Source: Clostridiaceae bacterium (lineage in GTDB: Bacteria; Bacillota; Clostridia; Saccharofermentanales; DTU023). From it: DNA of 64,000 bases. Under the pieces are notes generated by a model, which was not told the DNA's origin, did not search any database, and worked only from the letters and a program-made list of their open reading frames with translations. Both the position numbers and the translations under genes were made by a program. Of the stretch, positions 2,976-62,578 are shown in pieces. Where the stretch lies: assembly GCA_012799825.1 (NCBI GenBank), contig JAAZKK010000016.1, positions 12,009 through 76,008 of the forward strand. Direction: 5' to 3'. The stretch's first letter is position 1. The number at the start of each line of letters is the position of its first letter.

Positions 2976-3416
2976 TCACTCTTCCTCGTCACTCTTTTCT
3001 TCTGACGCTTGGGCACGCGCCGCATCGATAACCCACCGGTTCACTTGAGCGATCAAGTCCAAAGGAAACCGTTTCCTGAAATGAGTCAAAAGCGATGGAT
3101 CAAGAGATAAGTCATACCGGTAGTCCGTATAACCCAAGAAATATTGGATGTACGGATGCTCGCGGATCATCTGTACCGTATCAACGTCAGATAACTGCAA
3201 TTGCTCCTTAACAAAGAGACAACCGAGAACCAGGCTGACGGACTTGGCTCGCGCTCCGCGATGTCCCCGAAAATTTTTGCGGTATGCTTCCTCTACTCGG
3301 AACCAAGGTATGAGACCTGCCAGCTTCACCCACCGATTATCCGAGTTCGGTGGTAGACCTCCAAATAGAAAGGGTTCGTCGTGAAAGGCGATTTGACGAC
3401 TATCGTGATCGTACAT
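2976..3416 (-). pseudogene. IS5/IS1182-type transposase, N-terminal (DUF772-like) fragment only
   Basis: MYDHDSRQIAFHDEPFLFGG...LIPWFRVEEAYRKNF...RGARAKSVSLVLGCLFVKEQLQLSDVDTVQMIREHPYIQYFLGY...DPSLLTHFRKR matches the conserved N-terminal domain of IS5/IS1182 transposases. It ends after an acidic linker with no DDE domain. Confidence 0.65.
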
Positions 3417-3559
3417 GACGACTCTCCAACTCCAAAGTGCAAGGGTTTCTGAGCTTTTATACCGTTTCCCTAATGCAATAATAATCATGTACTTTCAAGT
3501 GCCAAACAGCCGTAGCAGTTTCTTCTGTTTTCTGTTCACTGGCCTTGACCTTGACAAGA

Positions 3560-3805
3560 AAATAGAGACAAGAGATGGCGCTTGAGTTTGTCCTCACCAG
3601 TCGTGTACTGTCTTATTAGGTCCGGATAGTAGATGTTAATTCCCAGGGACCTGAAAAGGACTACCCGTGTGCAAGAGTGTCCATCCACCTACAGACATAC
3701 ATGTTTAGGCTGGTTGAGGCCGGCTTCTCGTGCAACGCGTTAGGATGTGGGTTTGCAGGATAAGGGTGGTGTTTGAAGGACCAAATTTAATCACAGGAGT
3801 TAAAA
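3560..3805 (+). ncRNA. candidate IS110 bridge RNA region (left non-coding end)
   Basis: About 250-nt non-coding stretch directly upstream of the IS110 recombinase ORF, with local stems (ggtcc 3619-3623 / ggacc 3647-3651; ggac 3658-3661 / gtcc 3679-3682). The call rests on position and established knowledge of IS110 elements. The fold was not verified. Confidence 0.3.
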
Positions 3806-4755
3806 ATGGAAAACAAGCGTGAACTGGTTGTTGGTGTAGACGTGGCTAAAGTAGTGAAATCTGTATCCTTGACCTCGACTATTCCATTCACAGGAGAATG
3901 TCAGTGCGACACGACTCAGCAGAAAGCATGGATCATCTCATGCGAACTATTATGGCCAAAGAAAAGGATTTTGAAGCAACAGCGACCGTTGTTATAGAAT
4001 CCACTGGCCATTACCACAAAATCCTTAAACGTGCCCTAGACCTGCACGGGATACGGGTTGTTGTTAAGGATAAGGTTCTCAAACGCCTAGCCAAAGCATC
4101 TCGGAAAGGGATGACATGGGCACAAACCAAACTGGATACGATTCTGGTTAAAGACCGAACAATAGCTAAACTGGGCGCTAATGAAGCGGTCTTTGCCGAT
4201 CTGATTCGCTCCGAAATCGTGCTGTGCCAAGCCTTAAATCAACAAATGACCGCACGTCTTGAGCGCGTGAAAGACTATCTTCAAAAAAATGCTAGGAGTG
4301 ATAATCCAAAGCTGGCGCTACAGGTTGCTCTACTGCAGACGATTCCCGGAGTAGGACTTATCTCGGCTTTAACGATCGTGGCTGAATGCGGAGATATCTC
4401 GCGCTTCAAGCATGCAAGAGCACTCACTGCCTTTGCTGGCCTAGATCCGTCCGTGAAGGAATCGGGGCAATTTAAAGGAACTCGAAACAAGGTCTCCAAG
4501 CGGGGAAATCGCCAGCTGCGGCAAGCGCTCTATATGGTCGCTATGCGCTCCGTCAGCATCAACAGAAAGGGCGATTATGTTAACCCTTACTTGCGTGACT
4601 TCTATGACAGAAAGTGTCAATCGAAACCCAATAAAGTGGCCTTGATCGCTGTTGCGCATAAACTCATCTTCATCATTTTTGCTGTTCTTCGTGATCAGAA
4701 ACCGTTCTATTGGGTGGACCCAGAAGAGCATCAAGTCAGGATCAACTCGGCCTGA
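3806..4755 (+). pseudogene. IS110-family DEDD transposase/recombinase, interrupted by a frameshift near 3.85-3.90 kb
   Basis: N-terminal MENKRELVVGVDVAK (frame of 3806) continues in the frame of 3898 with ATVVIESTGHYH. C-terminal Transposase_20-type motif LQTIPGVGLISALTIVAECGDISRFKHARALTAFAGLDPSVKESGQFKG...SKRGNRQLRQALY. Confidence 0.75.
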
Positions 4756-4969
4756 TTATCTCTATTCTCTTGTCAAGGTACAAACGCCTGCTTCTCAAAG
4801 GGCGGTTCTGTTGGTGTGCTCTTTTCTAGAGCAATCCTTACACTTCTTGCTAATAATCAATACCGGCTATTTGGGGCCTTGACTGATTAGCTGGCTTGTA
4901 CCTATTGTACCCAATATTCACTGTAATACTCTGACTCCAGACCTTTGAAAATCGTTCAGCAAACCCTAA

Positions 4970-5785
4970 TTAATACTCTTGCATTGTGTTACCTGCTAGT
5001 TTGTTGTTTTTTTGGTGCTGTGAGTGCCATCTTAAAATTTTGCTTTCCACAAAGTTTAGTAAGTAATTAAGTATAATGCCCATAAATAGAAGGAGAAAAA
5101 CACATGACATTACTCTGGTTACGATGAAATATGATGACGCATAAGCAACCATCCAGCCAAAGCCTGCCGTAGCTCCCATATACTCACCTATTATTGAACC
5201 CACTATACTCGCACCTATACCTCCCCTAATGCCACCTAGAATGGACGGCATACAGGCAGGGAGAATAACGTGCCACCATGTCTGAGCTGTTCCGGCACCT
5301 AGCATTGTTGATATTTCAATTAGCTTTCTGTCGATATTATTAATTGCTCCGTAGGTTGCGAAAAAAACAACAAAAAACACCATAAGCCCAGCTAGAAATA
5401 CCTTGGAAGTCAATCCCAAACCAAACCATAATATATAAAGAGGAGCTAAGGTCAACTGGGGCACACTGTTAATTGCTGTTAATATCGGAGTAAAAATACT
5501 CCCAAGTATTTTAAACTGCCCAAATAATGCAGCGACAATAATACCAAGAAAGCAACCAACGATTAATGCGCTCAGAGCTTCTTGTAGAGTAATGGAAGCA
5601 TGTTTCCAAAGATCTCCACTAGTATAAAATTCTACTATGTCTTTAATGATGGCACTTGGATAACTTGTATAGAATGAGTCGAATCTTTCAGTTTTAGCCC
5701 CCCATTCCCATAGCAGTATTAGTCCGCCAACCAGCAATATCTGTATTACACTAATTAATATATGCCGCCTTTTTTCCCTATGCAT
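4970..5785 (-). CDS. ABC transporter permease (NitT/TauT/SsuC-like)
   Basis: 271 aa, multi-TM, binding-protein-dependent permease signature region. Follows the ATPase and SBP genes in the same operon. Confidence 0.75.
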   Translation of the reverse strand: MHREKRRHILISVIQILLVGGLILLWEWGAKTERFDSFYTSYPSAIIKDIVEFYTSGDLWKHASITLQEALSALIVGCFLGIIVAALFGQFKILGSIFTPILTAINSVPQLTLAPLYILWFGLGLTSKVFLAGLMVFFVVFFATYGAINNIDRKLIEISTMLGAGTAQTWWHVILPACMPSILGGIRGGIGASIVGSIIGEYMGATAGFGWMVAYASSYFIVTRVMSCVFLLLFMGIILNYLLNFVESKILRWHSQHQKNNKLAGNTMQEY

Positions 5786-5798
5786 AAATAATCGCTCC

Positions 5799-6821
5799 TT
5801 ATAATATCAGAAGATTCTTCTTGTTAACAGCTAAAGAAACGACTTCGTCATCTTTATATACCTCTGGCGTATCAAATTTTACATCCACCTTAATTTTGAC
5901 ACCCTCAACATTGATTAAATATTTTATTACGCTTTGCTGCAGAATATTGCTGACTACTTTTCCTGTCATGTAGTATAAATCTTCTTGTACATCAAAAGGC
6001 GCATTTGCAATTTCTATCACTTCCGGGCGGATGGCAACTGTAGTCCCATCTTTTGATAATTTCTCCGCTTTAGTGATTAATTTAAATTCATCGACAGATA
6101 ACATATTATAATTTCCAATAAAACTGGCGGCAAAAATAGTTTTTGGATTTGTATAGAGTTCACTGGGAGTTCCTGATTGTTCAATATAGCCATCATTACT
6201 AAAAAGGAAAATAATGTCGGACATCCGCATGGCCTCAATTTGATTGTGAGTAACAAATATTGACGTCATATTAAGTTCTTTATGAATCTCCTTTATTCTG
6301 CCCTGAAGTTCTGTTCTAAGTTTAGCGTCAATTGCGCTGAGAGGCTCGTCCAATAATAGAACTTTGGGAAACACCACTAAGCTTCTTGCCAAGGCTACCC
6401 GCTGCTGTTCACCACCCGAAAGCATGCTCGGATATTTACCTGTATGCTCGGTTAATTCTACCATTTTGATGACCTCTTTGACACTTTTGTCAATTTTGTC
6501 TCTATCGACACCTCTCATTTTTAGACCAAAAGCGATGTTATCATAAACTGTCATAGTAGGAAACAGACTGTATTGCTGGAATATCATACCTAAATTGCGA
6601 GATCTCACGCTTTTATTTGTGATATCCTCTCCGTCTAGCATTATCGTACCACTGTCAGGAATTTCTAATCCTGCAAAACAGCGCAATAATGTTGTCTTGC
6701 CACAACCAGAAGACCCCAATAATGTGACAAACTGGCCCTGTTCTATAGTCAGATTGATATCCTTTAAAACATGTTTATTACCAAAGTGTTTCTCAATATG
6801 CTTGAATTCTATGTAAGCCAC
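5799..6821 (-). CDS. ABC transporter ATP-binding protein with C-terminal TOBE-like domain
   Basis: Walker A GSSGCGKTT, signature LSGGEQQRVALAR, Walker B LLLDEPLSAID. 340 aa. Confidence 0.85.
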   Translation of the reverse strand: MAYIEFKHIEKHFGNKHVLKDINLTIEQGQFVTLLGSSGCGKTTLLRCFAGLEIPDSGTIMLDGEDITNKSVRSRNLGMIFQQYSLFPTMTVYDNIAFGLKMRGVDRDKIDKSVKEVIKMVELTEHTGKYPSMLSGGEQQRVALARSLVVFPKVLLLDEPLSAIDAKLRTELQGRIKEIHKELNMTSIFVTHNQIEAMRMSDIIFLFSNDGYIEQSGTPSELYTNPKTIFAASFIGNYNMLSVDEFKLITKAEKLSKDGTTVAIRPEVIEIANAPFDVQEDLYYMTGKVVSNILQQSVIKYLINVEGVKIKVDVKFDTPEVYKDDEVVSLAVNKKNLLIL

Positions 6822-6839
6822 TTTTCCTCCCGCTATACC

Positions 6840-7847
6840 CTATTCTGTTAAAGAAGTTTGGGCATTTTCCAAATAATTCATATTTACTATATCCTCATAT
6901 TCTATTTTGGTTTGCGGAATTCCGTATTTCATAAAGAAATTTTCAACTGCATCAAATCCTTTTTTACTAATATAACCATCGTTCGAAAAGGCTGGTCTTA
7001 AATAGTTGATTCTTAAGGCCAGATCCTCTTGGCTCATCGAAGAATAATATGAAGTGATCTTTGCAGCTATCTCGGCATCCGAGTGTTCTTGCACCCAATA
7101 TAGTGCTTTAAGGACAGCATTAACAAATTTTTGCACCGTTTCGGGGTTCTTTTTAGAAAATTCCTTGGAACAGCAAATTACGTCCGTTTCAAACTTATCA
7201 GAACCATAAAATTCAAGTGCGGTCTCAGGATCTCCGGTGCTGAATACAATGTTTACACCTGCTTTCTCGAGATCTGAAGTGTATTCAATCCCAAAGTATG
7301 AAGCTTTGATCTGCCCGCTACCTAAAGCTGCTAATGCAGCACCGTAATCCAAATTTACATAAGTAATGTCTTCTTTAATATTAAGCCCGGCGTTTGTTAA
7401 AACATTGCTGACTAGTTGATATGGTTCCGAACCAGGCAATCCGGCAAAAACAATTTTGCCTTTCAATTGGTCAATACTGTTAATAGACTTTGCCGTTGCC
7501 AAGACAAAAGGCCTGTTTTTCTTCATAGCAATTACTAATTCCGATCTCAAGCCTTGATCCTCACCAAGAAAGATTGTACCTTGGGAAAGCAAACAAAACT
7601 GAGAATTATTCGCATGCATACCCTGTAAAGCTAATGTTCCATCTCTATATACCGCAAATTCTACATCAAGACCTTGCTCTTCAAAATAACCAAGTTCATA
7701 GGCTAAATGCACAGGCAACCAACTCAATGCGCGGAATTCAGCTACAATAATTTTTGTTGATTGTTCTTTATTATTATTTGAGGTGCCGCATCCTACAAAT
7801 AAAAAAATCAAGAGCAAGGCTACACATATTGATAATACTCTTTTCAT
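6840..7847 (-). CDS. ABC substrate-binding lipoprotein (NMT1/THI5-like, SsuA/ThiY type)
   Basis: Lipoprotein signal LLIFLFVGCG. Periplasmic-binding fold of the NMT1/THI5 type, judged from overall sequence character and operon context. Confidence 0.6.
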   Translation of the reverse strand: MKRVLSICVALLLIFLFVGCGTSNNNKEQSTKIIVAEFRALSWLPVHLAYELGYFEEQGLDVEFAVYRDGTLALQGMHANNSQFCLLSQGTIFLGEDQGLRSELVIAMKKNRPFVLATAKSINSIDQLKGKIVFAGLPGSEPYQLVSNVLTNAGLNIKEDITYVNLDYGAALAALGSGQIKASYFGIEYTSDLEKAGVNIVFSTGDPETALEFYGSDKFETDVICCSKEFSKKNPETVQKFVNAVLKALYWVQEHSDAEIAAKITSYYSSMSQEDLALRINYLRPAFSNDGYISKKGFDAVENFFMKYGIPQTKIEYEDIVNMNYLENAQTSLTE

Positions 7848-7916
7848 CGCTGCATCCTCCGTTCATCCTGCTATAATATAATAAAGATTGTTATATAAAA
7901 ACTTCCAAATATTTTT

Positions 7917-8501
7917 TCACTTAACGAGCTCTTTTCCCTCGGTCTCTTCTCCCCATCTCTTAAAAAGATTCTCTTCGATCGAAAACTGGTCAAGGATCTT
8001 CCCAACAGTTTGATTGACAATATCATCAAGAGACTTAGGCTGGTGATAAAAAGCCGGTACAGGTGGAAGGATTACTCCCCCCATTCTAACAACTTTCATC
8101 ATTAATTCTAAATGTCCCTCGTGAAGTGGTGTTTCTCTAACCATCAGGACAAGCTTGCGCCGTTCTTTTAGTGAAACATCAGCTGCCCTTATAAGTAAAT
8201 TAAAATTAAAGGAATTAGCAATAGCCGAGAGCGTTTTTATGGAACAAGGTGCAACAATCATCCCATCAGTCTTGAATGAACCGCTGGCAATAGCCCCACC
8301 AATATCATTAATATCGTAGATGACAGACGCTAAGGCGTCCAAATCAGCTACTTTATATGACGTTTCAATCTCAAGATTCTTAATAGCAGCCTGTGAATAA
8401 ACCAGATGAACATTGGCGTTGGCTCTACTTAAAACTTCCAGTAATCTCACACCGTAAATTACTCCGCTTGCTCCCGTTATGCCTACCACAATCCTTGACA
8501 T
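7917..8501 (-). CDS. ubiX: flavin prenyltransferase UbiX (prFMN synthase)
   Basis: MSRIVVGITGASGVIYGVRLLEVL... 194 aa, with the typical UbiX/Pad1 N-terminus and length. Confidence 0.85.
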   Translation of the reverse strand: MSRIVVGITGASGVIYGVRLLEVLSRANANVHLVYSQAAIKNLEIETSYKVADLDALASVIYDINDIGGAIASGSFKTDGMIVAPCSIKTLSAIANSFNFNLLIRAADVSLKERRKLVLMVRETPLHEGHLELMMKVVRMGGVILPPVPAFYHQPKSLDDIVNQTVGKILDQFSIEENLFKRWGEETEGKELVK

Positions 8502-8644
8502 ATATACTGCCTCCGCATGCCATTATTTGTTATGTTAAATTGTAGTACTGTCCCCATGCCATTAAGCCATAGGCTACTGCTTAAAAAGCAACCTATGGCT
8601 ATGGTTAACAAGTATCAGGTTGCAGGCAAGCCTATTTCTTTCCT

Positions 8645-9937
8645 CTAATAGCCCTTTTTCGCCAAGAAAAGGAACAAGAGTGAGCAAATTAAGGCCGTAG
8701 AAGAGAATAACGTAACAACAGCGCTGTAACTAGAAATCCCTAGAATATATCCTGCTATAGTTGGCGCAAGTGCTCCCACTGCCGATCCTATCATGCCGGC
8801 AAATCCAATAGCGGCGCCAAGCGTTGCCTTTGACATTGTTTTATGGAAGGTGGTATGTATCCCTAAAAATCCAGGCTGTTGACACCCTACCGAGATAACA
8901 ATGAAAACCATTGCTATATAGTTATTCTTAATTACATTTCCGCCGATAAACATCGCTACTGCAGTAATCAAATAGGCTATGCCGCTAAATAGGGCACGAC
9001 GTTGGAATTTGTCCTGCAAGAATCCCATAATGGCAACAGTGATCATCGACCAAGCCCAGTTAAGAGAAAATAGTAAACCTGATGTCTTAAACGAAAAACC
9101 GCGTGCAGTATTGAAGTAAGAAGGCATCCATGTCATCCACCCGAAATAGTAAATGTTGGTACTGCACCAGATCACCGCAAGAATCCAAAATCTATAATCC
9201 CGCAAAAAGCTCCAATCTTTTTTTATAACTTGCTCTTCCTCACCTTTTTCCTGCAACTCTGCCTTTATTCCTGCTTCAATATAAGCAACTTCATTTTTGC
9301 TCATCCATTTGCTCTGTGAGGGATATTCCTTCATAAGAAAAATGATCGGAATCAACGGTAGCAGCGAGATCAACCCATGTAGGTAAAATGCATACCGCCA
9401 TCCTCCGGAAGCAATCATGGCTACAACTATTATTCCCGAAAGAACAGGGCCTACTGTTGTACCGTTCAACCAAAACGCACTTGCTCGACCGCGTTCTTTA
9501 GGCGGAAACCAGTTACCTACGTAGACGTTAAAAAGAGGAAACATAACACCTTGCCCAACACCAAGAATAATTCTGCCAATTATTATCTGGCCGGCTGTAG
9601 TTGAGAGACCACTTACCGCCATCGTAAGTGCCCAAATAATGGATGCAACAATGCCCGTATTACGAGGGCCTATTTTATCAATGATTGGTCCCCAGATCGA
9701 CTGTGTTAACGCATATGTGATCAAATAACTGGTAGCCAGCATCCCGGCCAAAGCAGGTCGATTAACCAAGTCTAAATCACTTAGAAACTGTTGATTAGAG
9801 ATCAATATCGAAACAGAAACCCTACTTAAGAGGATAATCGCCCCAATAAACGCCAAGGGCGTCGCCATTAAAAACCATCTTCTTATCCCAACAGATTCTT
9901 GGTTGGTATTCTTTGTTTTGAGATCCTTATTGCTCAT
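8645..9937 (-). CDS. MFS transporter (anion:cation symporter-like organic acid permease)
   Basis: 430 aa, about 12 TM segments. The WFPPKERGRASAFW loop motif is typical of ACS-type MFS carriers. Confidence 0.7.
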   Translation of the reverse strand: MSNKDLKTKNTNQESVGIRRWFLMATPLAFIGAIILLSRVSVSILISNQQFLSDLDLVNRPALAGMLATSYLITYALTQSIWGPIIDKIGPRNTGIVASIIWALTMAVSGLSTTAGQIIIGRIILGVGQGVMFPLFNVYVGNWFPPKERGRASAFWLNGTTVGPVLSGIIVVAMIASGGWRYAFYLHGLISLLPLIPIIFLMKEYPSQSKWMSKNEVAYIEAGIKAELQEKGEEEQVIKKDWSFLRDYRFWILAVIWCSTNIYYFGWMTWMPSYFNTARGFSFKTSGLLFSLNWAWSMITVAIMGFLQDKFQRRALFSGIAYLITAVAMFIGGNVIKNNYIAMVFIVISVGCQQPGFLGIHTTFHKTMSKATLGAAIGFAGMIGSAVGALAPTIAGYILGISSYSAVVTLFSSTALICSLLFLFLAKKGY

Positions 9938-10091
9938 TTTAACACCTCCTTTAAAATCTCTCCTATCAAATGCTCTAATGCTTCTTTTTCACTGCTATCT
10001 ACTTGCTTTTATTACTGCTTCAGAAACTTTTTTTTATCACCACCTTCCTCAATTCTTCTTATTATTATGTCCTTTATGTCTTTGACGAGTT

Positions 10092-11102
10092 TCAACCTTC
10101 GAATCGCTTAATTGCATCTAATAGTTCTTCTATTGCTCTGGTAATCACCTGATAAGACTCTCTTTTTACTTTTATGGTGACCCCCGTTTCTCGTACAACG
10201 GCTCTTTTCCCTTTAACCTCTTCAAGAGCCATGTCTATCACCTTTTTCTTCACTTCCTCTTCCTCTAGAACACCGATATTGCTTAGGATATAATCCGCAG
10301 TTTTCTCTAGCTGAATCGGCTCTTTGGCAAGAGCTCCGACAAAAATCCTGACAATTGGCGCCAGACCTTCGGCAACCGGTGAAAACCGTACAGCAACGTT
10401 AACTGTGGGAAAGTCTATTGACTGTCTAGTGCTATACTTGATAAACTTATCCCATGTTCCTGGCACATGGTAGGGAATGAGAATCCCCGTTATCAAGTAG
10501 TTCTTGCCTTTTTCCGACAAATAGTCGTTCAAAAGATCCTGAAGCAAAACCGTCTTTTCTCCGTCAGCATCATAGAGAAGAACCTTGGCATCATATGCAA
10601 GAAGTACGGGAGCAAGATCCGAATAATAAAGAGCACGGCACTCGGGTAATTTAGGAGCTTGATAACATATCTCCCCTCCGACTTTTATACAGGGAGGTTT
10701 ACTCTTGCGCCATTCTTCAGATTGGTTGTAATAATAACATCTCTTTTCCTGTAAAACATTCCCGGCAATGGTCCCCAAATTCCTGATCTGCGGCGACGCT
10801 ACGCAAAAGGCGCTGTAGCTAAGAGCTGGCATATGCTGGAGAATAACCGGATCTTTTGTAAGTTCAAAGAGAGTTACCATGGCGCCGATCAAAAGGCCGT
10901 CTTCTCTTTTCTCAATCGTCTTTAAGCTTGAAATGTTTTCAAGATCCAACAAGCATTCAGGTTTTTTTACGCCATACTGCATTAAGGGAATGAGATCTGT
11001 ACCCCCAGCTAGGATGGTAACGTTATCTCGCCGTTGGAAAAATTCTGCAGCCGTTTCCAAGGAGCAAGGAGCTTCATATTTAAACCGGTATCTTGAAATC
11101 AT
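10092..11102 (-). CDS. FAD-binding subunit of XO-family molybdoenzyme with extra four-Cys ([4Fe-4S]-type) insertion, HcrB-like
   Basis: ILAGGTDL and GTIAGNV FAD-binding (CoxM/XdhB-type) motifs. Insertion KRCYYYNQSEEWRKSKPPCIKVGGEICYQAPKLPEC has Cys at residues 122, 138, 146 and 155. 336 aa versus 294 aa for the other FAD subunit in this window. Confidence 0.75.
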   Translation of the reverse strand: MISRYRFKYEAPCSLETAAEFFQRRDNVTILAGGTDLIPLMQYGVKKPECLLDLENISSLKTIEKREDGLLIGAMVTLFELTKDPVILQHMPALSYSAFCVASPQIRNLGTIAGNVLQEKRCYYYNQSEEWRKSKPPCIKVGGEICYQAPKLPECRALYYSDLAPVLLAYDAKVLLYDADGEKTVLLQDLLNDYLSEKGKNYLITGILIPYHVPGTWDKFIKYSTRQSIDFPTVNVAVRFSPVAEGLAPIVRIFVGALAKEPIQLEKTADYILSNIGVLEEEEVKKKVIDMALEEVKGKRAVVRETGVTIKVKRESYQVITRAIEELLDAIKRFEG

Positions 11103-11125
11103 AATACCTTCCTCTCATTGTTTCC

Positions 11126-13414
11126 TTAATAAAAGAAATCCTCTCGGTTCCCCCCCAGAAGAAACACTTTTGCAAGAGGTGTCGGGAAGTTACTATTTTC
11201 CCCTGTGGCATTAGAAACCGCATTTACGATAGCAGGAGCAACCGCGACCGTGGAAAGTTCTCCAACTGATTTAGCTCCAAATGGACCTGTAGGCTCATAG
11301 CTGTTTTTAACAATATCCACATGAATTTCCGGCATATCAAGCGATGTAGGAACCTTGTAATGCAAAAGATCTGACGTTGAGGGCTTATTAGCCGTTTTAT
11401 CAATTTCAATTTGTTCCATTAGAGCCAAACCAATTCCCTGAGCAGTTCCACCGTGAAGCTGCCCCTTTACAATATCTGGATTAATGGCTGTTCCTACATC
11501 AGCTACCTGAATGAAATGACGAAGTGTAATAACTCCCGAAGTATTATCAACGGCAACCTTAGCCCAACAAACGTGAAAAGGCGCAGGGCTTCTATCAGCT
11601 TTATAGCACGCCGATCCTATGATAGCTGTGCCCTCCTTGCCGAATGCAATCTTGGCCATACATTCTTTCAAGGAAAGAAATATATCGCCCTCTGGAGCCT
11701 TGACAGTAAAAACACCTTTCTTGTGGGAGATTTTCTCCGGTTCAATACCGTAATACTTAGCCAGCACTGAACAAATCTTGTCTTTAGCATCAACTGCTGC
11801 ATTATACACAGCATTACCACCAACATAAGCCTGACTGCTGGCAAACGAACCTTGCTCATACGGGGTGCAGGAAGTATCCGCAGCAGTTACACTAATATCC
11901 TTGAGCTCCACACCCATTTCTTCGGCTAATATTTGACTGAAGGCGGTTTCGCTACCCTGCCCCATATCCGATGTTCCCGTGAGCAAAGTCATAGTGCCAT
12001 CATCATGCACTAAAACAGCAGATGAACTCATACCTTCATTATCCGTAGTACCTGAGGCGTGGCAACCGAATGCTACTCCCCAGGATTCAACGGTATTTGA
12101 GTCTTTCGGCAAAAATACTTCTTTATGATCAATTTCTTGCCTGATTTCTTCACCACGCTTTACGCATTCCCTGATAGCACAGCTCCGAACAGTGAAGGGA
12201 ACCCCTGGGAAATTCTCCCCAACTTCCACATGATTCATTAATCTGAACTTTATAGGATCAATCCCAAGCTTGCGCGCCATTTTATCCATCATAATTTCAC
12301 GGCATAAAGTAAGCTGAGGATTGCCATAACCTCTCATAGCACCCGCTACAGGGGCATTTGTATAAACAGAAAATGCTTCGAAATGGTAATGAGGTGCGTG
12401 GTACTGATACTTTTTGCTCATTGACCCCAAAACAATCGGAGTATGCGTACAGTACGCCCCTGAGTTCCCATAGACCTTAACATGATAAGCCAAGATACGC
12501 CCATCTTGGCTTACCCCAAACTTCAGCCTGCAGATGCAACTCATGCGAACACACGAAGCATACATCTCTTCTTCGCGAGTATTAATGATTTTTACCGGTC
12601 GCCCTACCAGTTTCGACAACAGAGCGCCCACTGGCTGGTTATGCAACTGTTGGCGTTGGCCAAATCCTCCACCCATAAATGGTTTGATTATCCTGACATC
12701 ATTTTCTCTCATGTTCAATATCTCAGCCAAGATCCTTCTATCGTGAAATAAAACTTGAGAATTCGCCCAAACTGTAAGCTTGCCTTCTCTGCTATAATCA
12801 CATATGCAGCTTACCGGCTCCATAGCTACATGCTGGACACTGGGTATATGAAATTCGTCTTCAAAAATATAATCTGATTCCTGAAATCCACGCTCAACAT
12901 CGCCCTGCTTCATCTCGGTCTTCTTAAATACATTCGACTTAAACAACTCCGGGTGAATCAGAGGTGCATCCTCCTTCATTGCGTCCCTAACATCAAACAC
13001 CGCAGGAAGCACTTCATATCGGACAGCCATTTTCGCTAATGCTTCTTCGCAAGCCTTTGGAGTAAGGGCAGCAACGGCGGCAATTCTGTCGCCCGCATAT
13101 AGCGGCTTAGCAGTGAGAATCCTTTCATCCTTTACATATGCAGGATATGGCGGACTGCTGCCACAATTAAACAGCACATCGGGAACATCTTCCGGAAGTA
13201 AAATCCCCAACACTCCATCAACCTTTTCTGCTTCTGTTTTGTCAATACTCGCAACCCTTGCGTGAGCATGCGGACTCCTGAGAATTTTCCCATAAACCAT
13301 CCCCGGCAAATTCAAATCATCCGTAAATTTAGCACACCCCATCACTAAAGAGAGGGCATCACGGCGGGAACAGGACTTTCCGACAACCTTGTACTCTTCC
13401 ATAGCAAACACCAC
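11126..13414 (-). CDS. molybdopterin-binding large subunit of XO/aldehyde-oxidase family enzyme (HcrA-like)
   Basis: 762 aa. FMGGGFGQRQQ and GAMRGYGNPQ family motifs, and C-terminal PFGAKSVGE. The start could be GTG 13414 or ATG 13402. Confidence 0.85.
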   Translation of the reverse strand: MVFAMEEYKVVGKSCSRRDALSLVMGCAKFTDDLNLPGMVYGKILRSPHAHARVASIDKTEAEKVDGVLGILLPEDVPDVLFNCGSSPPYPAYVKDERILTAKPLYAGDRIAAVAALTPKACEEALAKMAVRYEVLPAVFDVRDAMKEDAPLIHPELFKSNVFKKTEMKQGDVERGFQESDYIFEDEFHIPSVQHVAMEPVSCICDYSREGKLTVWANSQVLFHDRRILAEILNMRENDVRIIKPFMGGGFGQRQQLHNQPVGALLSKLVGRPVKIINTREEEMYASCVRMSCICRLKFGVSQDGRILAYHVKVYGNSGAYCTHTPIVLGSMSKKYQYHAPHYHFEAFSVYTNAPVAGAMRGYGNPQLTLCREIMMDKMARKLGIDPIKFRLMNHVEVGENFPGVPFTVRSCAIRECVKRGEEIRQEIDHKEVFLPKDSNTVESWGVAFGCHASGTTDNEGMSSSAVLVHDDGTMTLLTGTSDMGQGSETAFSQILAEEMGVELKDISVTAADTSCTPYEQGSFASSQAYVGGNAVYNAAVDAKDKICSVLAKYYGIEPEKISHKKGVFTVKAPEGDIFLSLKECMAKIAFGKEGTAIIGSACYKADRSPAPFHVCWAKVAVDNTSGVITLRHFIQVADVGTAINPDIVKGQLHGGTAQGIGLALMEQIEIDKTANKPSTSDLLHYKVPTSLDMPEIHVDIVKNSYEPTGPFGAKSVGELSTVAVAPAIVNAVSNATGENSNFPTPLAKVFLLGGNREDFFY

Positions 13415-13442
13415 TTAAACGTTTAATAAGCAACTCCAGGAA

Positions 13443-14879
13443 CTAAAAACCATACTTTTTCCAGCGATCCAACGCTTTTTTCTGCATATCCTCCGGATAG
13501 GTTTCCGCAAGGCTGGTCCTTATAGGCACTTCTTCCGCCGGCCAATCCTTCGGCCAGGTGCAGTCAAAATAAGCACGTGCTCCGCTTCTGTGCAAGCGTT
13601 CATGGCTATCAGCGTATGGAGTGTAACTTATGATGGGCGCTTTCTTGATTTGAAAAATTCCTTTACCAGGATGGCACTTGGAAGATAGTGCATGCAACAC
13701 CATTGGAAGATCAAACGGATCTACATTTTCATCCACAACGATTAGATAATACATAGAGCGCGAAGCTCTAACCGACCAAATAATATTTGCTATGTCAGTA
13801 GCCACATTGGCATAGGTCGTCTTCACAGAAACTATGGTCAATTGAAGGGCGCATTCCGGCGGTACGTTAACTGCTTTTACATCTATGCCAAAGTTCCTTA
13901 AGGCCTTTAAACACTCCGCCGCTTTGGTAATAGAAACAATGGAGTGCGAGTCTGCCAGAGGCATACCCTCATTGGAATACGTAAACACAGGATTATTTCT
14001 GTGAGTAATTGCAGTAACACGCATAACAGGACGCGGCAATTGGCCTGCTACACCATAACCGGTAAACTCTCCAAATGGGCCGTCAACCTCTCTCTCATGA
14101 GGCCTCATTTCTCCCTCAAGAACAATTTCAGAAGTCGCAGGAACCAAAATATCACTAGTTTCACATTTCACCAACTCAACAGGCTTACGGCGCAACCCTC
14201 CTGCTACATCAACTTCAGATACGCCAAAGGGAATTGGACTGGCGGAGCATATAAGACAAGTAGGTTCAGGTCCTATGGCAATCGCTGTCTTCATGGTTTC
14301 TCCACGTTCTTCACAACGTGTAAGCATTCCCCCAAAATGAGTAGGTGGATCAGCTGTAACACCAAGCCTTTTCTCATCAAACATCATACCGCGGTGCATT
14401 CCATAGTTCGTCCAAGTCGTTCCGTCCGGCTGCACTTCGCTGGAGATATTGAGATGAAACGTCGCAAAGAATCTTCCGCCATCACCACCATGGATGATAG
14501 GCGCTGGGAATTTTGTGAGGTCGACATCCTTGCCAAGTATAATATTCTCCTTACAGGGACCGCTTTTTACCACAACCGGTTTAATAGGATTTCTCGATCT
14601 CTTAAGATATTCTTCCTGCAATTCCGATGGTGGTGTATCGGGATCCATATCCATGGCAATAGCTACCCGCCGATGATTGGCAAGAATACCGCCAGCCATC
14701 TTATAATTCGAAGGATAATCTTTAATTTTTTCAAAATACGGTGCCGGAAGACGCTTTTCATGAGACGCACGAAGTATTGCACCCGCCTCTAAGTTCCAAT
14801 CGACCTCATCGGTCATCCGAACTAATTCTCCCTCTTGCTCTAGCTTGTCGATAAATTCTCTCACATCATTAAATGCCAT
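13443..14879 (-). CDS. UbiD-family (prFMN-dependent) reversible decarboxylase
   Basis: 478 aa. N-terminal DVREFIDKLEQEGELVRM and DGPFGEFTGY motifs are typical of the UbiD family. Confidence 0.85.
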   Translation of the reverse strand: MAFNDVREFIDKLEQEGELVRMTDEVDWNLEAGAILRASHEKRLPAPYFEKIKDYPSNYKMAGGILANHRRVAIAMDMDPDTPPSELQEEYLKRSRNPIKPVVVKSGPCKENIILGKDVDLTKFPAPIIHGGDGGRFFATFHLNISSEVQPDGTTWTNYGMHRGMMFDEKRLGVTADPPTHFGGMLTRCEERGETMKTAIAIGPEPTCLICSASPIPFGVSEVDVAGGLRRKPVELVKCETSDILVPATSEIVLEGEMRPHEREVDGPFGEFTGYGVAGQLPRPVMRVTAITHRNNPVFTYSNEGMPLADSHSIVSITKAAECLKALRNFGIDVKAVNVPPECALQLTIVSVKTTYANVATDIANIIWSVRASRSMYYLIVVDENVDPFDLPMVLHALSSKCHPGKGIFQIKKAPIISYTPYADSHERLHRSGARAYFDCTWPKDWPAEEVPIRTSLAETYPEDMQKKALDRWKKYGF

Positions 14880-14933
14880 TGCTAGTAAGCCTCCTTTTCA
14901 AAATCCATTTTTATACACAATTGCTTCAACCTC

Positions 14934-15422
14934 TCAAAGATCTAAGCTCTTAATATCATCGGCTGCTTTACGAACAGCTTTCTCTATATTGACATATCCA
15001 GTACAACGACAGATATTCCCGGAAAGGGCAACTTTGATTTCCTCATCTGACGGATCCGGGTTTTGATCCAATAAAGCTTTGGCTGACATTATCATTCCTG
15101 GAGTACAAAACCCGCATTGAACTGCACCTTCATCGACAAAAGCCTCTTGAAGGGGATGAGGTTTACCATCAACTGCCAATCCTTCGATTGTTAAAATATT
15201 CTTCCCATTCGCACGCATTGCCGGAATTTGACAGGAATTTACAGCCTTGCCATTCATTATTACAGTACAAGCTCCGCAAAGCCCCCTGTCACATCCCCGT
15301 TTTGTTCCTGTCAGTCCTAAGTCATCACGCAATACATCCAGCAAGCTGTCAGACAGGTCTACGTCTATCTGCCGTTCGCTACCATTAAGCTCAAACTTAA
15401 TCCTTATCCGCCCGTCTCCCAT
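14934..15422 (-). CDS. [2Fe-2S]-binding small subunit of XO-family molybdoenzyme (HcrC-like)
   Basis: 162 aa. GCDRGLCGACTV and CGFCTPG...CRCTGY cluster motifs. Confidence 0.9.
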   Translation of the reverse strand: MGDGRIRIKFELNGSERQIDVDLSDSLLDVLRDDLGLTGTKRGCDRGLCGACTVIMNGKAVNSCQIPAMRANGKNILTIEGLAVDGKPHPLQEAFVDEGAVQCGFCTPGMIMSAKALLDQNPDPSDEEIKVALSGNICRCTGYVNIEKAVRKAADDIKSLDL

Positions 15423-15500
15423 TGCTTCACCCCACCTTCAGGCGGGGGGACGCTCTCAGCATAAAGCACCAAGCAACACCCCCCACACCTTGTTAGGCTA

Positions 15501-16466
15501 TCAGACTTTAAACACTCTTTCGGCATTTCCGTGCATAATCAGTGCTGCCTCTTCTTCTGTGAACGTTGCTCCATATTTCTTGCCTTCTTCAGGTAGATTG
15601 CGGAAAATTTTTACCCATTGTTTAGTCAGTTTAATATCGCTTTCGACATGACCCATTTTATAGCTCGGCATATCTGTTCCAAACATAATTTTGTTTGCGC
15701 CAAGCACGTGTCTCATAGTTTTCATTTTGTACCAGAATTTTGGCATATCCGCTAAAACGTCACAGGTGTATTCCCTTTGCCAATCTGCAACATCCACATA
15801 CACATTAGGTTTACACGATGCAACAATTACTGCTTTTTCCCAGAACCAATCTGACGGATACTTGTCAAATCCCGTATGGCACATAATAATTTTCAAATCT
15901 GGCAAATCCCTAGCAATCTCTTCCACGTGAATCGGATCACCATATTTATTCAGCAAGCCTGAAGCGTGCTGAGCTCCGGTATGAATTGTAACCGGCACAT
16001 CAAGGTCAATACATTTTTGGTAATATGCATAACATATCGGATCATTTGCGTAAAAACCAGCAATAGGCCAGAAGCTAAGCCCTATTGCACCCCATTCCTT
16101 TACAGCCTTTTCAAACATTTTAATCCCGCCGGGACGCCTCGGGTCAATGCCAAAGAGGGAATATACTTTCCCTTTATAGCGTTCGGCCATCTCACATTGG
16201 AACTTATTGATATGTTCGATATCGGTAGGCGTGTCTCCGGGATAGGCTAGCCCTGAATCCACGGTATGTAGAATCACTGTATCAATATCGAATTCTTCAA
16301 CCTGCTTCATCATTACGCTTCCATCTTTATCCTGCTTATACCTATACCAAGCTTCCTCCAAGGAAACACCATACATGCCCTGAGTGTAAGACTCCACCCT
16401 TTGCACCGGATCCCAACCTACGCCCCAGTAGTGCCTGTGCGTATCAATTAATCTCGCTTTTGTCAT
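15501..16466 (-). CDS. amidohydrolase_2 (ACMSD/LigW/LigI superfamily) metal-dependent decarboxylase or hydrolase
   Basis: 321 aa. N-terminal LIDTHRHYW (HxH metal motif) and later IMCHTG and FGTDMP motifs, typical of the amidohydrolase_2 fold. Confidence 0.7.
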   Translation of the reverse strand: MTKARLIDTHRHYWGVGWDPVQRVESYTQGMYGVSLEEAWYRYKQDKDGSVMMKQVEEFDIDTVILHTVDSGLAYPGDTPTDIEHINKFQCEMAERYKGKVYSLFGIDPRRPGGIKMFEKAVKEWGAIGLSFWPIAGFYANDPICYAYYQKCIDLDVPVTIHTGAQHASGLLNKYGDPIHVEEIARDLPDLKIIMCHTGFDKYPSDWFWEKAVIVASCKPNVYVDVADWQREYTCDVLADMPKFWYKMKTMRHVLGANKIMFGTDMPSYKMGHVESDIKLTKQWVKIFRNLPEEGKKYGATFTEEEAALIMHGNAERVFKV

Positions 16467-16734
16467 AATTTGTGACCTCCTCTCCTATATTCAATATTTT
16501 TCAGGCAAAACAGAAAAGGTATTTCATTCAGCTATTTAAGTAATCCTGACAATTCTGAAAAACTCCGCTTTTACAATCGACTAATACTACTAAAACAACT
16601 AACAATCCACTTGTTTTTCTGTTATATTTGCCTATAATTAAACTAACATAAGCAAATTCTTGTTTCATCGTTGTCACTAATTAAAAATAGAATGTTTTAG
16701 TTGTGGATGACACACATGATTAGGATAATCAACA

Positions 16735-18288
16735 ATGCTACTTACCTTTAATAAACTATCTAAACACTTGGAAAAACAAGGATTCAAGGTTTACATACAT
16801 GTGAAAAAAGATGTGGTCTTACATGCGTCCGTGTTGATTAGTTCTAACTTAAACGCAGTCACGAACAACGTCGTTTATATAGGTACTGCCTCTTCTTTTC
16901 CTCGTACAATAGTTAACTCTCAGGACGGCTGTTATATCTTAATAGCTGATAGCGACACCCCATCCAAAAACAACCAGCCTTACTCACAATGTAATTATGT
17001 TCTTTTGCCTGCTGATACTGACTTGATGCAATTGTATAATGTTATTCAGGAATTTTTCATTAACGGCTCCATTATGTCGTCCTTTTCTGCAACACTTTTA
17101 AGTTCAATTATAAATGGTAAATGTTTACAAGATATCATCAACACAGCATATGAGTTCTTAGAAAACCCTATAACTTTGGTTGATAATTATTGGAAACTAC
17201 TTGCTTATACGAAAAATATCACATTAGATGATAAATATTGGCTAGAGCTTTCAAATAAAGGATATTACTCTAGCGAAACTGTACTTCTCATCACCAAGCG
17301 AAAACTCTTGCAGAAGCTAATAAATACCGACCAACCAATAATTCACACCTCAGGCGATACAGAAAACTACCGCAAAATGACAGGCAAAATAATGATCTCG
17401 CAAAGGATTTTCGGCTATATAAGCGTTTGGGAGTATAACAGATTATTTACCGAACAAGACAAGCACTTATTACAATTGACTTGCGGCGCAATTGGAGAAG
17501 TTATGCAAAAAAACGATTATTACCGTTATTCAAAAGGTGAGGCCTATGAATACTTGCTCAAGGATTTATTAGATATAAAAATCGAACATGTAGAGCTTAT
17601 TAACGATAGAATAAATTCTATTAAATGGAATTTTGGAGATACTCCTCATGTTTTGGTTCTTGATAACAGTTTTCCCCATACTAGTACAAGCTTCACTTAC
17701 AATGTAAGAATACATTTAGAGCGACTTATTCCCTTGTCAAAATCGGTTTTTTATCAGGACCATCTCATTTTTTTCTTTGACAAAAGCGCAAATACGAATG
17801 TACAGCAAGAGCGAATAGAACAAATAAAAAAGTTACTGCATAAAAACCGCCTTAAAGCCGGTGTCAGTAGCAAAATATCCAACATTCTTGACCTGTCTCT
17901 ATATTATACACAAGCGATAACGGCACTCGACTTGGGCAAGCGTTTAAATTTAGAGGAAGATCTGTATTTTTATGATAATCTGCTTATATATCATCTGCTC
18001 TCGAACTGTAATACGCTTGAACCTTTTTGTCACCAAGGCATTCTTGCTCTTGAAGACTATGATAAGCACAAAGATACAAGGTATTTTGAAACTCTCCTTG
18101 AATATTTAAAAAACGATAAAAGTGTATCCAAAACTGCGGCTGCGCTTCATATCCATCCAAATACTATGAGCTATCGACTCAAAAAAATTACAAAAATCGC
18201 AAATATCGATTTAGATAACCTAGAACAGTGTGCACATATTTTATTCTCGTTTAAAATGCTGGATTTGCTAAAAACACACAGAGATTAG
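16735..18288 (+). CDS. PucR/CdaR-family transcriptional regulator
   Basis: 517 aa. C-terminal HTH region LLEYLKNDKSVSKTAAALHIHPNTMSYRLKKI, typical of PucR_C. Divergent from the catabolic operon. Confidence 0.75.
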   Translation: MLLTFNKLSKHLEKQGFKVYIHVKKDVVLHASVLISSNLNAVTNNVVYIGTASSFPRTIVNSQDGCYILIADSDTPSKNNQPYSQCNYVLLPADTDLMQLYNVIQEFFINGSIMSSFSATLLSSIINGKCLQDIINTAYEFLENPITLVDNYWKLLAYTKNITLDDKYWLELSNKGYYSSETVLLITKRKLLQKLINTDQPIIHTSGDTENYRKMTGKIMISQRIFGYISVWEYNRLFTEQDKHLLQLTCGAIGEVMQKNDYYRYSKGEAYEYLLKDLLDIKIEHVELINDRINSIKWNFGDTPHVLVLDNSFPHTSTSFTYNVRIHLERLIPLSKSVFYQDHLIFFFDKSANTNVQQERIEQIKKLLHKNRLKAGVSSKISNILDLSLYYTQAITALDLGKRLNLEEDLYFYDNLLIYHLLSNCNTLEPFCHQGILALEDYDKHKDTRYFETLLEYLKNDKSVSKTAAALHIHPNTMSYRLKKITKIANIDLDNLEQCAHILFSFKMLDLLKTHRD

Positions 18289-18289
18289 T

Positions 18290-18736
18290 CTATGTCAGAT
18301 TATTACAGCAGTAATCATGTGTTAATGTTTGAATTAATTCTTCAATTATTTCCTCAAGCAATTCTATCACTATATTAATTTCTGAACTTGTTATCTCTTC
18401 AAGATGAATTCCACAGCTCACCACCACCGTCTTATTGAGCTTAGTTACGAGAGTTTCTGCCGTCTTCTTAGCTACAGTATCTTCTTTATGTCCTAAAACT
18501 GTTAAAACTGAAGTGGAGGAACTTAGTCTTTCAGGATCTGACAAACTCTTTCGAGGCAGGCTTAGCGCCACAGCTCCAATGTGAGGCAATTCCCCTCCAG
18601 TTATCACTACACACAAATCATTTCCTGCCATTACAGCTGTTAAGTTGATCTTTACTCTTTCTCTTGCTTTTGTAATTTTCAGCACTTTAGCCACCTCTAT
18701 AAGGAGTACAAGGATAATTGCAATTGTTTTCTTCAT
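18290..18736 (-). CDS. LpdD-like small subunit / prenylated-flavin chaperone of hydroxyarylic acid decarboxylases
   Basis: VVITGGELPHIGAVALS resembles the VVTGGTNPHIGDV motif I recall from Lactobacillus plantarum LpdD. The start is uncertain: the ORF opens at 18778, and MKKT at 18736 was chosen. Confidence 0.55.
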   Translation of the reverse strand: MKKTIAIILVLLIEVAKVLKITKARERVKINLTAVMAGNDLCVVITGGELPHIGAVALSLPRKSLSDPERLSSSTSVLTVLGHKEDTVAKKTAETLVTKLNKTVVVSCGIHLEEITSSEINIVIELLEEIIEELIQTLTHDYCCNNLT

Positions 18737-18967
18737 GATACCGTTTCTCTTCTCTTTTTTGGTGCGGCACGTATTCACTTCATGCTATTATCAATACCCT
18801 ATTAAGTTAAAAAGGACAAAACTTCGCTTCATATTATAATTGATTCCCTTCTCTAGATAAAGGTACAGCTCTATTAATTTTTGTGAGAACTCGATCACGA
18901 AAATGCCCAACACCTGATCCGGGCAGGCCTGTTTTGTGTAAGGAAGTAGTGGACAGCATTTACATTG

Positions 18968-49881: not shown

Positions 49882-50615
49882 ATCGCTCCCCCGTTATATG
49901 CTTCGAGGTAGGGCCGAACCTCAATTTCACGCTCAAAAACGGCGCGATGCTCATCCATTCCGTCAGGCTCATAGGAAAGGCCGCCGAGCTGATAGATCTG
50001 ACGCATCACCTCATGGCCGATACTGGTCTGTTCATCCGGCGTCAACTTGCTCTTATTTTTCATGGTCATTAAAAGCGTGTCACTGAATGCGAATCGCGGT
50101 CGTCCGAACAATCGATAGTTTGGAGTGATCCCCACCAGAATGACAGGTATTCTATGACGAATGGCGTAGTAAAGGAGCACCTCTTTCGGCTCTGCCGAGG
50201 TAATATCGTCCGCCGCAACTCGCGTCCCCTGCATAAAAAGCCCGACAATCCGATCCATACGAAGTGCCTTCAAGATGCTTTTTGCCGCGTGCATATCGGT
50301 CACTTGCCGGTCAAGCTTAATCGAGTGAAATGCGTCAAGAATCGTCTGAACACACGGTATGCGGTACAACTCTTTTTTGGCGACAAACGATAGCCGATCC
50401 GTTTTATAAAAAAGCGTGATAAAAATAGGATCACACATGTGATGATGATTCGCGAATAAAATGGCTTTACCAGGCACGGTCGGTTTACGATGCCCTATGA
50501 CTTTAGGAAGAAACCATGGCACTAATAACGTACGGACAAGAAAGCGGATCGCCTTGTTCACAAATCGATGCCACAAAGAAAGCTTCGGTGATTCGTTTGA
50601 CCTGCGATCAGTCAT
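49878..50615 (-). CDS. plsC: 1-acyl-sn-glycerol-3-phosphate acyltransferase
   Basis: NHHHMCDP (HX4D) acyltransferase motif. 245 aa. 4-nt overlaps with both neighbours. Confidence 0.75.
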   Translation of the reverse strand: MTDRRSNESPKLSLWHRFVNKAIRFLVRTLLVPWFLPKVIGHRKPTVPGKAILFANHHHMCDPIFITLFYKTDRLSFVAKKELYRIPCVQTILDAFHSIKLDRQVTDMHAAKSILKALRMDRIVGLFMQGTRVAADDITSAEPKEVLLYYAIRHRIPVILVGITPNYRLFGRPRFAFSDTLLMTMKNKSKLTPDEQTSIGHEVMRQIYQLGGLSYEPDGMDEHRAVFEREIEVRPYLEAYNGGAI

Positions 50616-61542: not shown

Positions 61543-61634
61543 AAGCGTATTGCTCCTCTCCTCGTCATCACGCCGTCGCTTTTCCGGCATCATGAACTCT
61601 ATATATCAAGAAAGTATCTTTTTTGTCGAAGCTG

Positions 61635-62519: not shown

Positions 62520-62578
62520 TCTATTACCTCCGACACCGCTCGGGCGGTCTTCTGCGAGATATTACTAAACCTTATTCC

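Follow-up and report, generated by a model that had tools for sequence, protein, structure and literature searches.

Which reactions a three-subunit molybdenum (Mo) enzyme, a UbiD-family decarboxylase and a metal-dependent Amidohydro_2 protein may jointly carry out on an aromatic compound, when no gene for its activation by coenzyme A (CoA) accompanies them, is the question raised by positions 4970-18736 of a 64-kb stretch of DNA from a Clostridiaceae bacterium (contig JAAZKK010000016.1), the whole of which is referred to as the window in the following. The answer we favour, tentatively and with somewhat less than even confidence, is a CoA-free breakdown of an imported heteroaromatic compound in which the Mo enzyme hydroxylates the ring, the Amidohydro_2 protein hydrolyses or rearranges it and UbiD removes a carboxylate. 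We favour it because a pathway that works without CoA and has been proven biochemically is built from the same three families together with UbiX (PMC12391406), and because the Mo-binding subunit is closer to its homologue in a lumazine-dehydrogenase cluster and to XdhA than to HcrA.

The open reading frames (ORFs) of the window were listed and scanned with Pfam and NCBIfam models, by which all twelve genes of the original prediction were recovered with the same coordinates, families and strands. The minus-strand operon, running from 16466 down to 4970 with 13-154 bp between neighbouring genes, begins with the gene of the Amidohydro_2 protein (15501-16466; ACMSD superfamily, PF04909, 85.2 bits versus a cut-off of 26.4). 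[quoted passage not shown] Downstream of these the operon continues with a permease of the major facilitator superfamily (MFS), UbiX, and the binding protein, ATPase and permease of a transporter belonging to the ATP-binding cassette (ABC) class. The UbiD gene thus lies between the genes of the FeS and the Mo subunit, with gaps of 28 and 54 bp, which is a further reason for preferring a joint pathway. This position likewise argues against the view that Mo enzyme and decarboxylase module serve separate functions which the island combines by chance, as a mosaic, and so do the single regulator, the uniform composition of the island and the renewed occurrence of the three enzymes in two other loci described below. 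In favour of a mosaic it can be said that the nearest relatives of the UbiD protein (67%, 58% and 57% identity) and those of the Mo subunit (55-62%) mostly occur apart from each other, without ligases. We consider such a mosaic very improbable.

The two other loci belong to different lineages. A TARA marine scaffold just 3.4 kb in length (L051) encodes, in this order, the C-terminus of a Mo subunit, a UbiD protein (61% identity) and an Amidohydro_2 protein (60%). In L058 a single operon comprises an Amidohydro_2 protein (48%), a PaaK-like CoA ligase, FAD, FeS and Mo subunits (Mo 39%), a metallo-beta-lactamase (MBL)-fold hydrolase and a UbiD protein of another subfamily. Since the trio recurs in these lineages, the Mo enzyme, Amidohydro_2 and UbiD families are functionally linked. 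The recurrence speaks for the favoured reading. So do the rarity and the partners of the Amidohydro_2 subfamily: among 1.84 billion representative proteins it yielded 153 matches at E<=1e-30 and only two clusters above 450 bits, and a Mo enzyme was present in four of seven independent contexts, as was UbiD (four of seven). When the Amidohydro_2 alignment was run against GTDB genomes, only relatives of at most 36% identity were returned (bar one 40-residue fragment), none of which has a UbiD neighbour, and the plasmid matches H5, H47 and H48 turned out to belong to unrelated ferulate- or adenylate-type clusters. The closest-but-one relative (58%) is found in L017 (7355-13839) along with two UbiDs and a cyclase-family hydrolase. 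The order there is UbiD, a 63-residue ORF, the cyclase-family (PF04199) hydrolase, Amidohydro_2, the second UbiD and finally an MFS transporter; neither UbiD exceeds about 25% identity to that of the island.

The pathway which serves as precedent is the CoA-free degradation of lumazine by Cupriavidus sp. LA-1 as described by Doi et al. 2025, consisting of LuDH, DHLI and XCDC plus UbiX (PMC12391406). LuDH, a lumazine dehydrogenase with Mo and three subunits, hydroxylates first C7 and afterwards C6, DHLI, a zinc-dependent isomerase of the amidohydrolase-2 family, contracts the ring to give xanthine-8-carboxylate, and XCDC, a UbiD-family decarboxylase working with UbiX, converts the latter to xanthine (PMC12391406). 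For comparison we used the homologous cluster on the Sinorhizobium meliloti plasmid CP050561.1. Like the island, it unites a three-subunit Mo enzyme, an Amidohydro_2 protein, UbiD and UbiX in one cluster, involves no CoA activation and possesses a dedicated regulator and transporter. Its Mo subunit, with 37% identity, is the best match found among clusters of known function. In contrast to LuDH, which uses NAD+, the FAD subunit of the island carries an extra [4Fe-4S] loop. Furthermore, the island includes the chaperone LpdD, resides in a strict anaerobe and relies on an MFS permease and an ABC system of the NitT/TauT type instead of BMP-type transporters. Our analysis would be in line with the island representing an anaerobic, ferredoxin-linked and LpdD-assisted variant of the logic of the lumazine pathway, an assignment that we consider possible rather than probable.

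Whether the Mo enzyme oxidises or reduces its substrate is central to this assignment. The FAD subunit, whose best match in the PDB is HcrB (1rm6_B, E 4e-34), contains an insert of about 40 residues with four cysteines in the arrangement C-x15-C-x7-C-x8-C (spacing 16/8/9). All four align one-to-one, and with identical spacing, with the [4Fe-4S] ligands of HcrB (1rm6), and the insert is predicted to bind such a cluster. It also aligns with the medium subunit of an aldehyde oxidase (5y6q_B), and PaoB (5g5g) shares the feature. Among related loci the loop is kept in L014, L015, L016 and L056 and absent in L055 and L058. It is missing as well from Ucd, a xanthine-oxidase-family enzyme which reduces a free substrate (PMC11760930). 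Given that the loop is present in the oxidative enzymes PaoB and 5y6q_B and missing from the reductive Ucd, it marks a ferredoxin-type electron port and not the direction of the reaction. That oxidative enzymes bear [4Fe-4S] FAD subunits, too, is one more reason why we favour hydroxylation.

As regards the Mo subunit, BLASTP ranks the L058 protein first (39%, 477 bits), before the S. meliloti lumazine-cluster homologue (460 bits) and Escherichia coli XdhA (33%, 392 bits). HcrA of Thauera aromatica (32.8%, 340 bits) has the lowest score of the comparison, and the best NCBIfam model is XdhA with 604 bits. None of the three Hcr equivalog models reaches its cut-off (alpha, TIGR03194, 517.5 versus 994.6; beta, TIGR03195, 181.3 versus 404.6; gamma, TIGR03193, 182.5 versus 257.8). 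The GGGFGQR motif and the catalytic glutamate (GAKSVGE) are present; being identical in HcrA and in hydroxylases, the Mo motifs and this glutamate proved uninformative as markers of direction. The island enzyme and HcrABC of T. aromatica have the three-subunit architecture and the four-cysteine insert in common, and HcrABC provides the best solved-structure match for both the FAD and the Mo subunit. They differ in that the island Mo subunit resembles hydroxylase-type relatives more closely than HcrA, in that the scanned ORFs include neither a 4-hydroxybenzoate-CoA ligase nor benzoyl-CoA pathway genes, and in that the island operon encloses a UbiD gene. The designation "Hcr-like", which the original prediction had applied to all three subunits, consequently holds only for the FAD subunit with its [4Fe-4S] loop and is to be dropped for the Mo subunit, as BLASTP places HcrA behind the lumazine homologue and XdhA. 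The reductive reaction postulated at the same time is not dictated by the sequence, from which no direction can be read, and a hydroxylase now appears at least as likely.

That reductive reaction formed part of an earlier reading of the locus, according to which a free phenolic (poly)carboxylic acid is decarboxylated and reductively dehydroxylated as an electron sink. Electrons from ferredoxin would enter the Mo enzyme via the [4Fe-4S] cluster, the electron flow would be inverted as in 4-HBCR, the reductase of 4-hydroxybenzoyl-CoA, and a ring hydroxyl would be removed, while UbiD would take a para-type and the Amidohydro_2 protein an ortho-hydroxy-type carboxyl group. The conserved cysteines of HcrB and the rank of HcrB and HcrA among the solved structures agree with this, and reductases of the xanthine oxidase family acting on free substrates do exist, namely Ucd/Ucdh (PMC11760930, bioRxiv 10.1101/2025.01.17.632430) and XdhD (bioRxiv 10.1101/2025.05.19.654654). 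By description, Ucd/Ucdh of Enterocloster resembles the island enzyme as a clostridial member of the family with a free, non-CoA aromatic substrate; it differs by using NADH, lacking the [4Fe-4S] loop and having no UbiD, UbiX or LpdD at its side. The eam cluster of Gordonibacter, again by description, joins an ACMSD-family metal-dependent decarboxylase, Eah, with MFS transporters, a regulator and Mo dehydroxylases, and thus offers a parallel to the proposed dehydroxylation; these dehydroxylases, however, are of the dimethyl sulphoxide (DMSO) reductase family, and UbiD, UbiX and LpdD are absent. A precedent from digesters is Cryptanaerobacter, which in methanogenic reactors converts 4-hydroxybenzoate to benzoate as electron acceptor (PMC5946492). 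Moreover, the host, as a presumed fermenter, should have an ample supply of reduced ferredoxin. Against dehydroxylation speak the greater distance of the Mo subunit from HcrA than from hydroxylase-type relatives and the failure of the [4Fe-4S] loop to indicate direction. In addition, the known cases in the family require a strongly electron-withdrawing thioester or ester para to the hydroxyl, for which a free carboxylate is a poor substitute. Nor do we know of any system which joins these three families for reductive dehydroxylation plus decarboxylation. Altogether we regard this reading as unlikely, though well worth retaining as the chief rival. Its more specific form is doubtful: here the Mo enzyme would be a 4-HBCR-type reductase, driven by ferredoxin, independent of CoA and endowed with the [4Fe-4S] electron entry that Ucd lacks, which strips a free (hetero)aromatic acid of a ring substituent jointly with two unrelated decarboxylases. 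Were it true, the island would be a portable "aromatic electron sink" cassette for a fermenting Clostridium.

In the decarboxylase itself the metal-binding (Mn/K) and catalytic residues of Fdc1 and HudA (N, R, H, E, D..E) are conserved, and the protein passes model TIGR00148 with 308.8 bits versus a cut-off of 244.9. Along with the cognate flavin prenyltransferase UbiX, which makes prFMNH2 (7917-8501, minus strand; NF004685, 264 bits versus a cut-off of 188), this qualifies it as a prFMN decarboxylase. It stays below the NCBIfam cut-offs for VdcC (NF041204, 285.5 versus 650), PpcA (358 versus 564.6) and UbiD proper. While the nearest annotated relative is PpcA of Azoarcus (40% identity), which suits the dehydroxylation of a phenolic acid, the nearest PDB entries are HudA/PA0254 (7abn/4ip2), followed by Fdc1 and PhdA. 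VdcC-type enzymes, HmfF and AroY rank lower (HudA 256 bits versus HmfF 172). HudA acts on pyrrole-2-carboxylate, another argument for the favoured reading; the position of HudA Asn318, considered as a marker for this substrate, is occupied by Ser in the island UbiD and turned out to be uninformative. A decarboxylase of the VdcCD/LpdC type was rejected, as VdcC remains below its cut-off, VdcB reaches 242.6 versus 290 and no small VdcD-like ORF is present. The phenylphosphate carboxylase/phenol pathway was discarded as well. The Ppc systems of Thauera and Azoarcus do share the PpcA relationship and the clustering of UbiD- and UbiX-type genes with the island, yet the latter, unlike the Azoarcus cluster, lacks the beta, gamma and delta subunits and phenylphosphate synthase (Pps), with PpcB, PpcD and PpcG all absent.

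A gene convergent with that of the regulator encodes an LpdD-type prFMNH2-binding chaperone (18290-18736/18778, minus strand; PF21758, E 7e-39) which matches LpdD in the PDB (8pzh, E 9e-7) and retains the GG..PHIG motif. LpdD is a prFMNH2-binding chaperone, seldom adjoins UbiD and is not a VdcD (PMC10865409). It therefore carries no information on the substrate class, and its former interpretation as a marker of the hydroxyarylic-acid subgroup (gallate, vanillate) has to be abandoned. The UbiD protein is not of the VdcC/LpdC type.

The Amidohydro_2 protein is less readily assigned. It is a member of the superfamily by its HxH...H...H...D metal/catalytic set and its TIM-barrel fold; across 13-18 homologues H162, H197 and D265 are invariant, and H10/H12 almost so. 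An AlphaFold2 (AF2) model with a predicted local distance difference test (pLDDT) score of 88.9 matches superfamily members with a Foldseek probability of 1.00. Hydroxybenzoate decarboxylases, LigJ hydratase, LigI-like lactonases, ACMSD and IDCase score about equally (template modelling (TM) score ~0.6). The nearest folds are the gamma-resorcylate, dihydroxybenzoate and 5-carboxyvanillate decarboxylases, as the dehydroxylation of a phenolic acid would lead one to expect. The enzyme might hydrolyse a ring or lactam, isomerise its substrate or decarboxylate it.

Is the missing CoA ligase, then, simply encoded elsewhere? Pfam scans of the window ORFs of at least about 130 residues, from which five shorter ORFs of 127-185 residues at 40.4-44.4 kb were left out, revealed no gene for an AMP-binding ligase, a CoA transferase, a BCR/HGD-D protein or a ferredoxin. 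The reported absence of CoA-activating, benzoyl-CoA reductase and ferredoxin genes is thereby confirmed for the scanned ORFs. The premise that a ligase-free locus of this kind is anomalous, however, is outdated, since both xanthine-oxidase-family reductases acting on free substrates and a CoA-free Mo/amidohydrolase-2/UbiD pathway are now known. The alternative would be a CoA-dependent pathway with its ligase or transferase elsewhere in the genome, in which case the island would hold one part of an aryl-CoA route, either of the Hcr or of the furoyl-CoA dehydrogenase (HmfABC) type. Several relatives lend themselves to this view: besides the ligase-containing operon of L058, L056 holds a ligase, a loop-bearing Mo enzyme, a reductase of the old yellow enzyme (OYE) family and an Amidohydro_2 protein (40%), and L012 couples a UbiD relative (54%) and an Amidohydro_2 gene with two ligases. 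The furfural/5-hydroxymethylfurfural (HMF) pathway of Cupriavidus basilensis (hmfABCDE-hmfFGH) joins a UbiD/UbiX decarboxylase for a heteroaromatic dicarboxylate with a ligase, as it needs the furoyl-CoA synthetase HmfD. It has in common with the island a three-subunit Mo dehydrogenase hydroxylating the ring beside the heteroatom, a hydrolase that opens the ring and a transporter of the MFS class, its hydrolase being of the crotonase type and that of the island an Amidohydro_2 protein. On the other hand, no ligase or CoA transferase occurs among the scanned ORFs, and the lack of an essential ligase would be odd in a foreign island which carries every other accessory function. Those related loci that need a ligase keep it inside the operon. 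Finally, the loci of the closest Mo relatives (L014-L016, 55-62%) contain no ligase within 10 kb. The check on neighbouring ligases suggested earlier hence has a divided outcome: the closest clostridial relatives of the Mo subunit are free of them, whereas L058 and L056 carry them. Arranged by distance, the nearest loci are those without a ligase (L051 being just 3.4 kb long) and the more distant ones those with it. A CoA-dependent pathway seems improbable to us. The possession of regulator, transporters and cofactor genes without a ligase is, in turn, a reason for the CoA-free reading.

These relatives deserve some further description. L014 and L015 contain loop-bearing Mo relatives (61-62%) in differing contexts without a CoA ligase in either: one has IclR, an ABC transporter of the branched-chain type, an M20 peptidase and a LarA-like gene nearby, the other a DcuC transporter. 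Their gene neighbourhoods suggest a clostridial clade of Mo enzymes with diverse substrates other than CoA thioesters. In L016 (9484-15028, Clostridiaceae bacterium 35-E11, CP121688.1) the loop-bearing Mo enzyme, 56% identical to that of the island, adjoins a gene of the aromatic-amino-acid-lyase family, and a sigma-54 activator is present too. The lyase shows ACG where the ASG motif forming the 4-methylideneimidazole-5-one (MIO) group is expected, and the locus may be a cluster of the ergothionase plus thiourocanate-reductase type. The nearest UbiD relative (67%) is located in L010 (10001-13169, Chloroflexi metagenome-assembled genome (MAG) JACQUC010000148.1), where it is followed by HGD-D and BcrAD/BadFG-type genes, whose products are the components of an enzyme of the benzoyl-CoA reductase or dehydratase type together with its activator, not a Mo enzyme.

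With respect to the substrate, transport and regulation supply additional hints. The permease gene at 8645-9937 (minus strand; PF07690, E 1e-50) specifies an MFS protein of the anion:cation symporter (ACS) type, best matched in NCBIfam by TIGR00893 (185 bits, under the cut-off). The ABC system comprises an NMT1/SsuA-like substrate-binding lipoprotein (6840-7847; PF09084, E 1e-24), an ATPase (5799-6821; PF00005, E 3e-38) and a NitT/TauT-type permease (4970-5785; PF00528, E 3e-25; 0.34 GC at third codon positions, GC3), all on the minus strand. The binding protein scores 81 bits with SsuA_fam, far under the cut-off; its best PDB match is 3qsl, which has no known ligand, and SsuA and ThiY match weakly. 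Two distinct uptake systems, as originally proposed, are thus indeed present within the island. On the plus strand, divergent from the operon, lies the gene of a PucR/CdaR-family regulator (16735-18288; PF13556, E 6e-18; weak GGDEF_2 match), separated from it by 268 bp between the two start codons (16467-16734), presumably the promoter/operator region. The PucR family is typical of purine and N-heterocycle catabolism, and its presence is a further ground for the favoured reading. Under this reading the substrate of the island would probably be an N-heterocycle. As to its identity, we arrive at the same verdict as the original prediction, i.e. that it is not deducible from sequence.

Combining these elements, the favoured CoA-free pathway would proceed as follows. 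The substrate would be taken up by the MFS permease and/or the ABC system, with the operon being induced by the PucR-type regulator. Subsequently, the three-subunit Mo enzyme would hydroxylate one or more ring carbons with water, passing the electrons via its two [2Fe-2S] clusters, FAD and the extra [4Fe-4S] cluster to the ferredoxin pool of the host. The Amidohydro_2 protein would hydrolyse or rearrange the resulting lactam or lactone and thereby create or expose a ring carboxylate. UbiD, supplied with prFMN made by UbiX and delivered by LpdD, would remove this carboxylate and release the product into host metabolism. What the analysis demonstrates of this scheme is the gene content, the island, the intact catalytic residues, the [4Fe-4S] motif and the repeated occurrence of the trio, whereas the sequence of reactions, the direction in which the Mo enzyme works, its electron partner and the class of substrate are inferred.

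A number of observations weigh against this proposal. The best match of the FAD subunit, by a clear margin, is the reductase HcrB. PpcA as best annotated UbiD relative and the hydroxybenzoate decarboxylases as best Amidohydro_2 folds both point to phenolic acids, and an ACS-type MFS permease suggests an anionic substrate. In L058 the same trio is joined with a PaaK-like CoA ligase. Furthermore, the resemblance to lumazine degradation is not one of orthology, the island UbiD being 27% and the Amidohydro_2 protein 22-23% identical to the S. meliloti proteins. The island has a single Amidohydro_2 gene in place of an alpha/beta pair and possesses neither a pterin deaminase nor a GTPase of the LA1_0143 type, which always goes with DHLI beta (PMC12391406).

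The boundaries of the locus are marked in its base composition. GC3 ranges from 0.30 to 0.42 in the genes at 4970-18736 versus 0.47 to 0.62 for every other window gene measured. The break occurs between lpdD and a biotin ligase gene on one side and at an IS110-family insertion sequence on the other (3548-4779; Transposase_20 ORF 3898-4755), whose 24-nt inverted repeats (3548-3571 and 4756-4779) are 92% complementary. As this break coincides with the gene block, the coordinates of the locus delimit a horizontally acquired island of about 14 kb comprising a regulator, two uptake systems, three enzymes and cofactor genes. Neither direct repeats bounding the island nor an integrase were found at its flanks. 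Because independent assemblies of biogas-fermenter metagenomes (JGI, ENA and Logan) contain the locus together with its two junctions, the gene arrangement is not an assembly artefact; the NCBI label of its proteins reads "MAG: Clostridiaceae bacterium". The locus rightly bears the attribute "self-contained" given to it earlier, as it brings along a regulator, two uptake systems and the cofactor genes for UbiX and LpdD.

Beside the island are located a 939-residue ORF without a Pfam match (141-2960) and a DUF772 transposase fragment (2976-3488). On its other side, the minus strand at 18968-27182, of host GC, encodes a biotin ligase, an amidase-signature amidase, the beta and gamma subunits of an oxaloacetate decarboxylase, a biotin carrier, a carboxyltransferase and a malonate decarboxylase alpha subunit (PF16957), which together resemble a malonate decarboxylase of the Na+-pumping, biotin type, possibly accompanied by a malonamidase. 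A link of the island to the amidase and malonate decarboxylase (20-27 kb; for instance from a heterocycle via malonamate to malonate) was rejected as unsupported because these genes share the GC content of the host, are not part of the island and yielded no case of independent co-occurrence. At 61051-64000 a second operon of the xanthine oxidase family, with host composition, encodes a FeS subunit of 180 residues, a canonical FAD subunit (294 residues, CO_deh_flav_C) without the [4Fe-4S] loop, and a Mo subunit running past the end of the window. It could represent a purine hydroxylase of the host, possibly acting downstream of the island. Elsewhere in the window, 47575-51883 contains two fused genes, one combining LytB/IspH and S1 domains (768 residues), the other ScpB and cytidylate kinase (423 residues).

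The comparison defines a clostridial clade within the xanthine oxidase family which is distinguished by an HcrB-type [4Fe-4S] loop and has no CoA ligase nearby, and a rare Amidohydro_2 subfamily which, with its recurrent Mo and UbiD partners, constitutes a three-protein set for substrate screening. If the favoured reading is true, the route of hydroxylation, amidohydrolase-2 rearrangement and prFMN-dependent decarboxylation would reach beyond aerobic soil Proteobacteria, and anaerobic digesters would harbour it as a mobile cassette that needs no oxygen. Such a cassette would have a ferredoxin-type electron outlet, and its LpdD would bear on the maturation of prFMN without O2.

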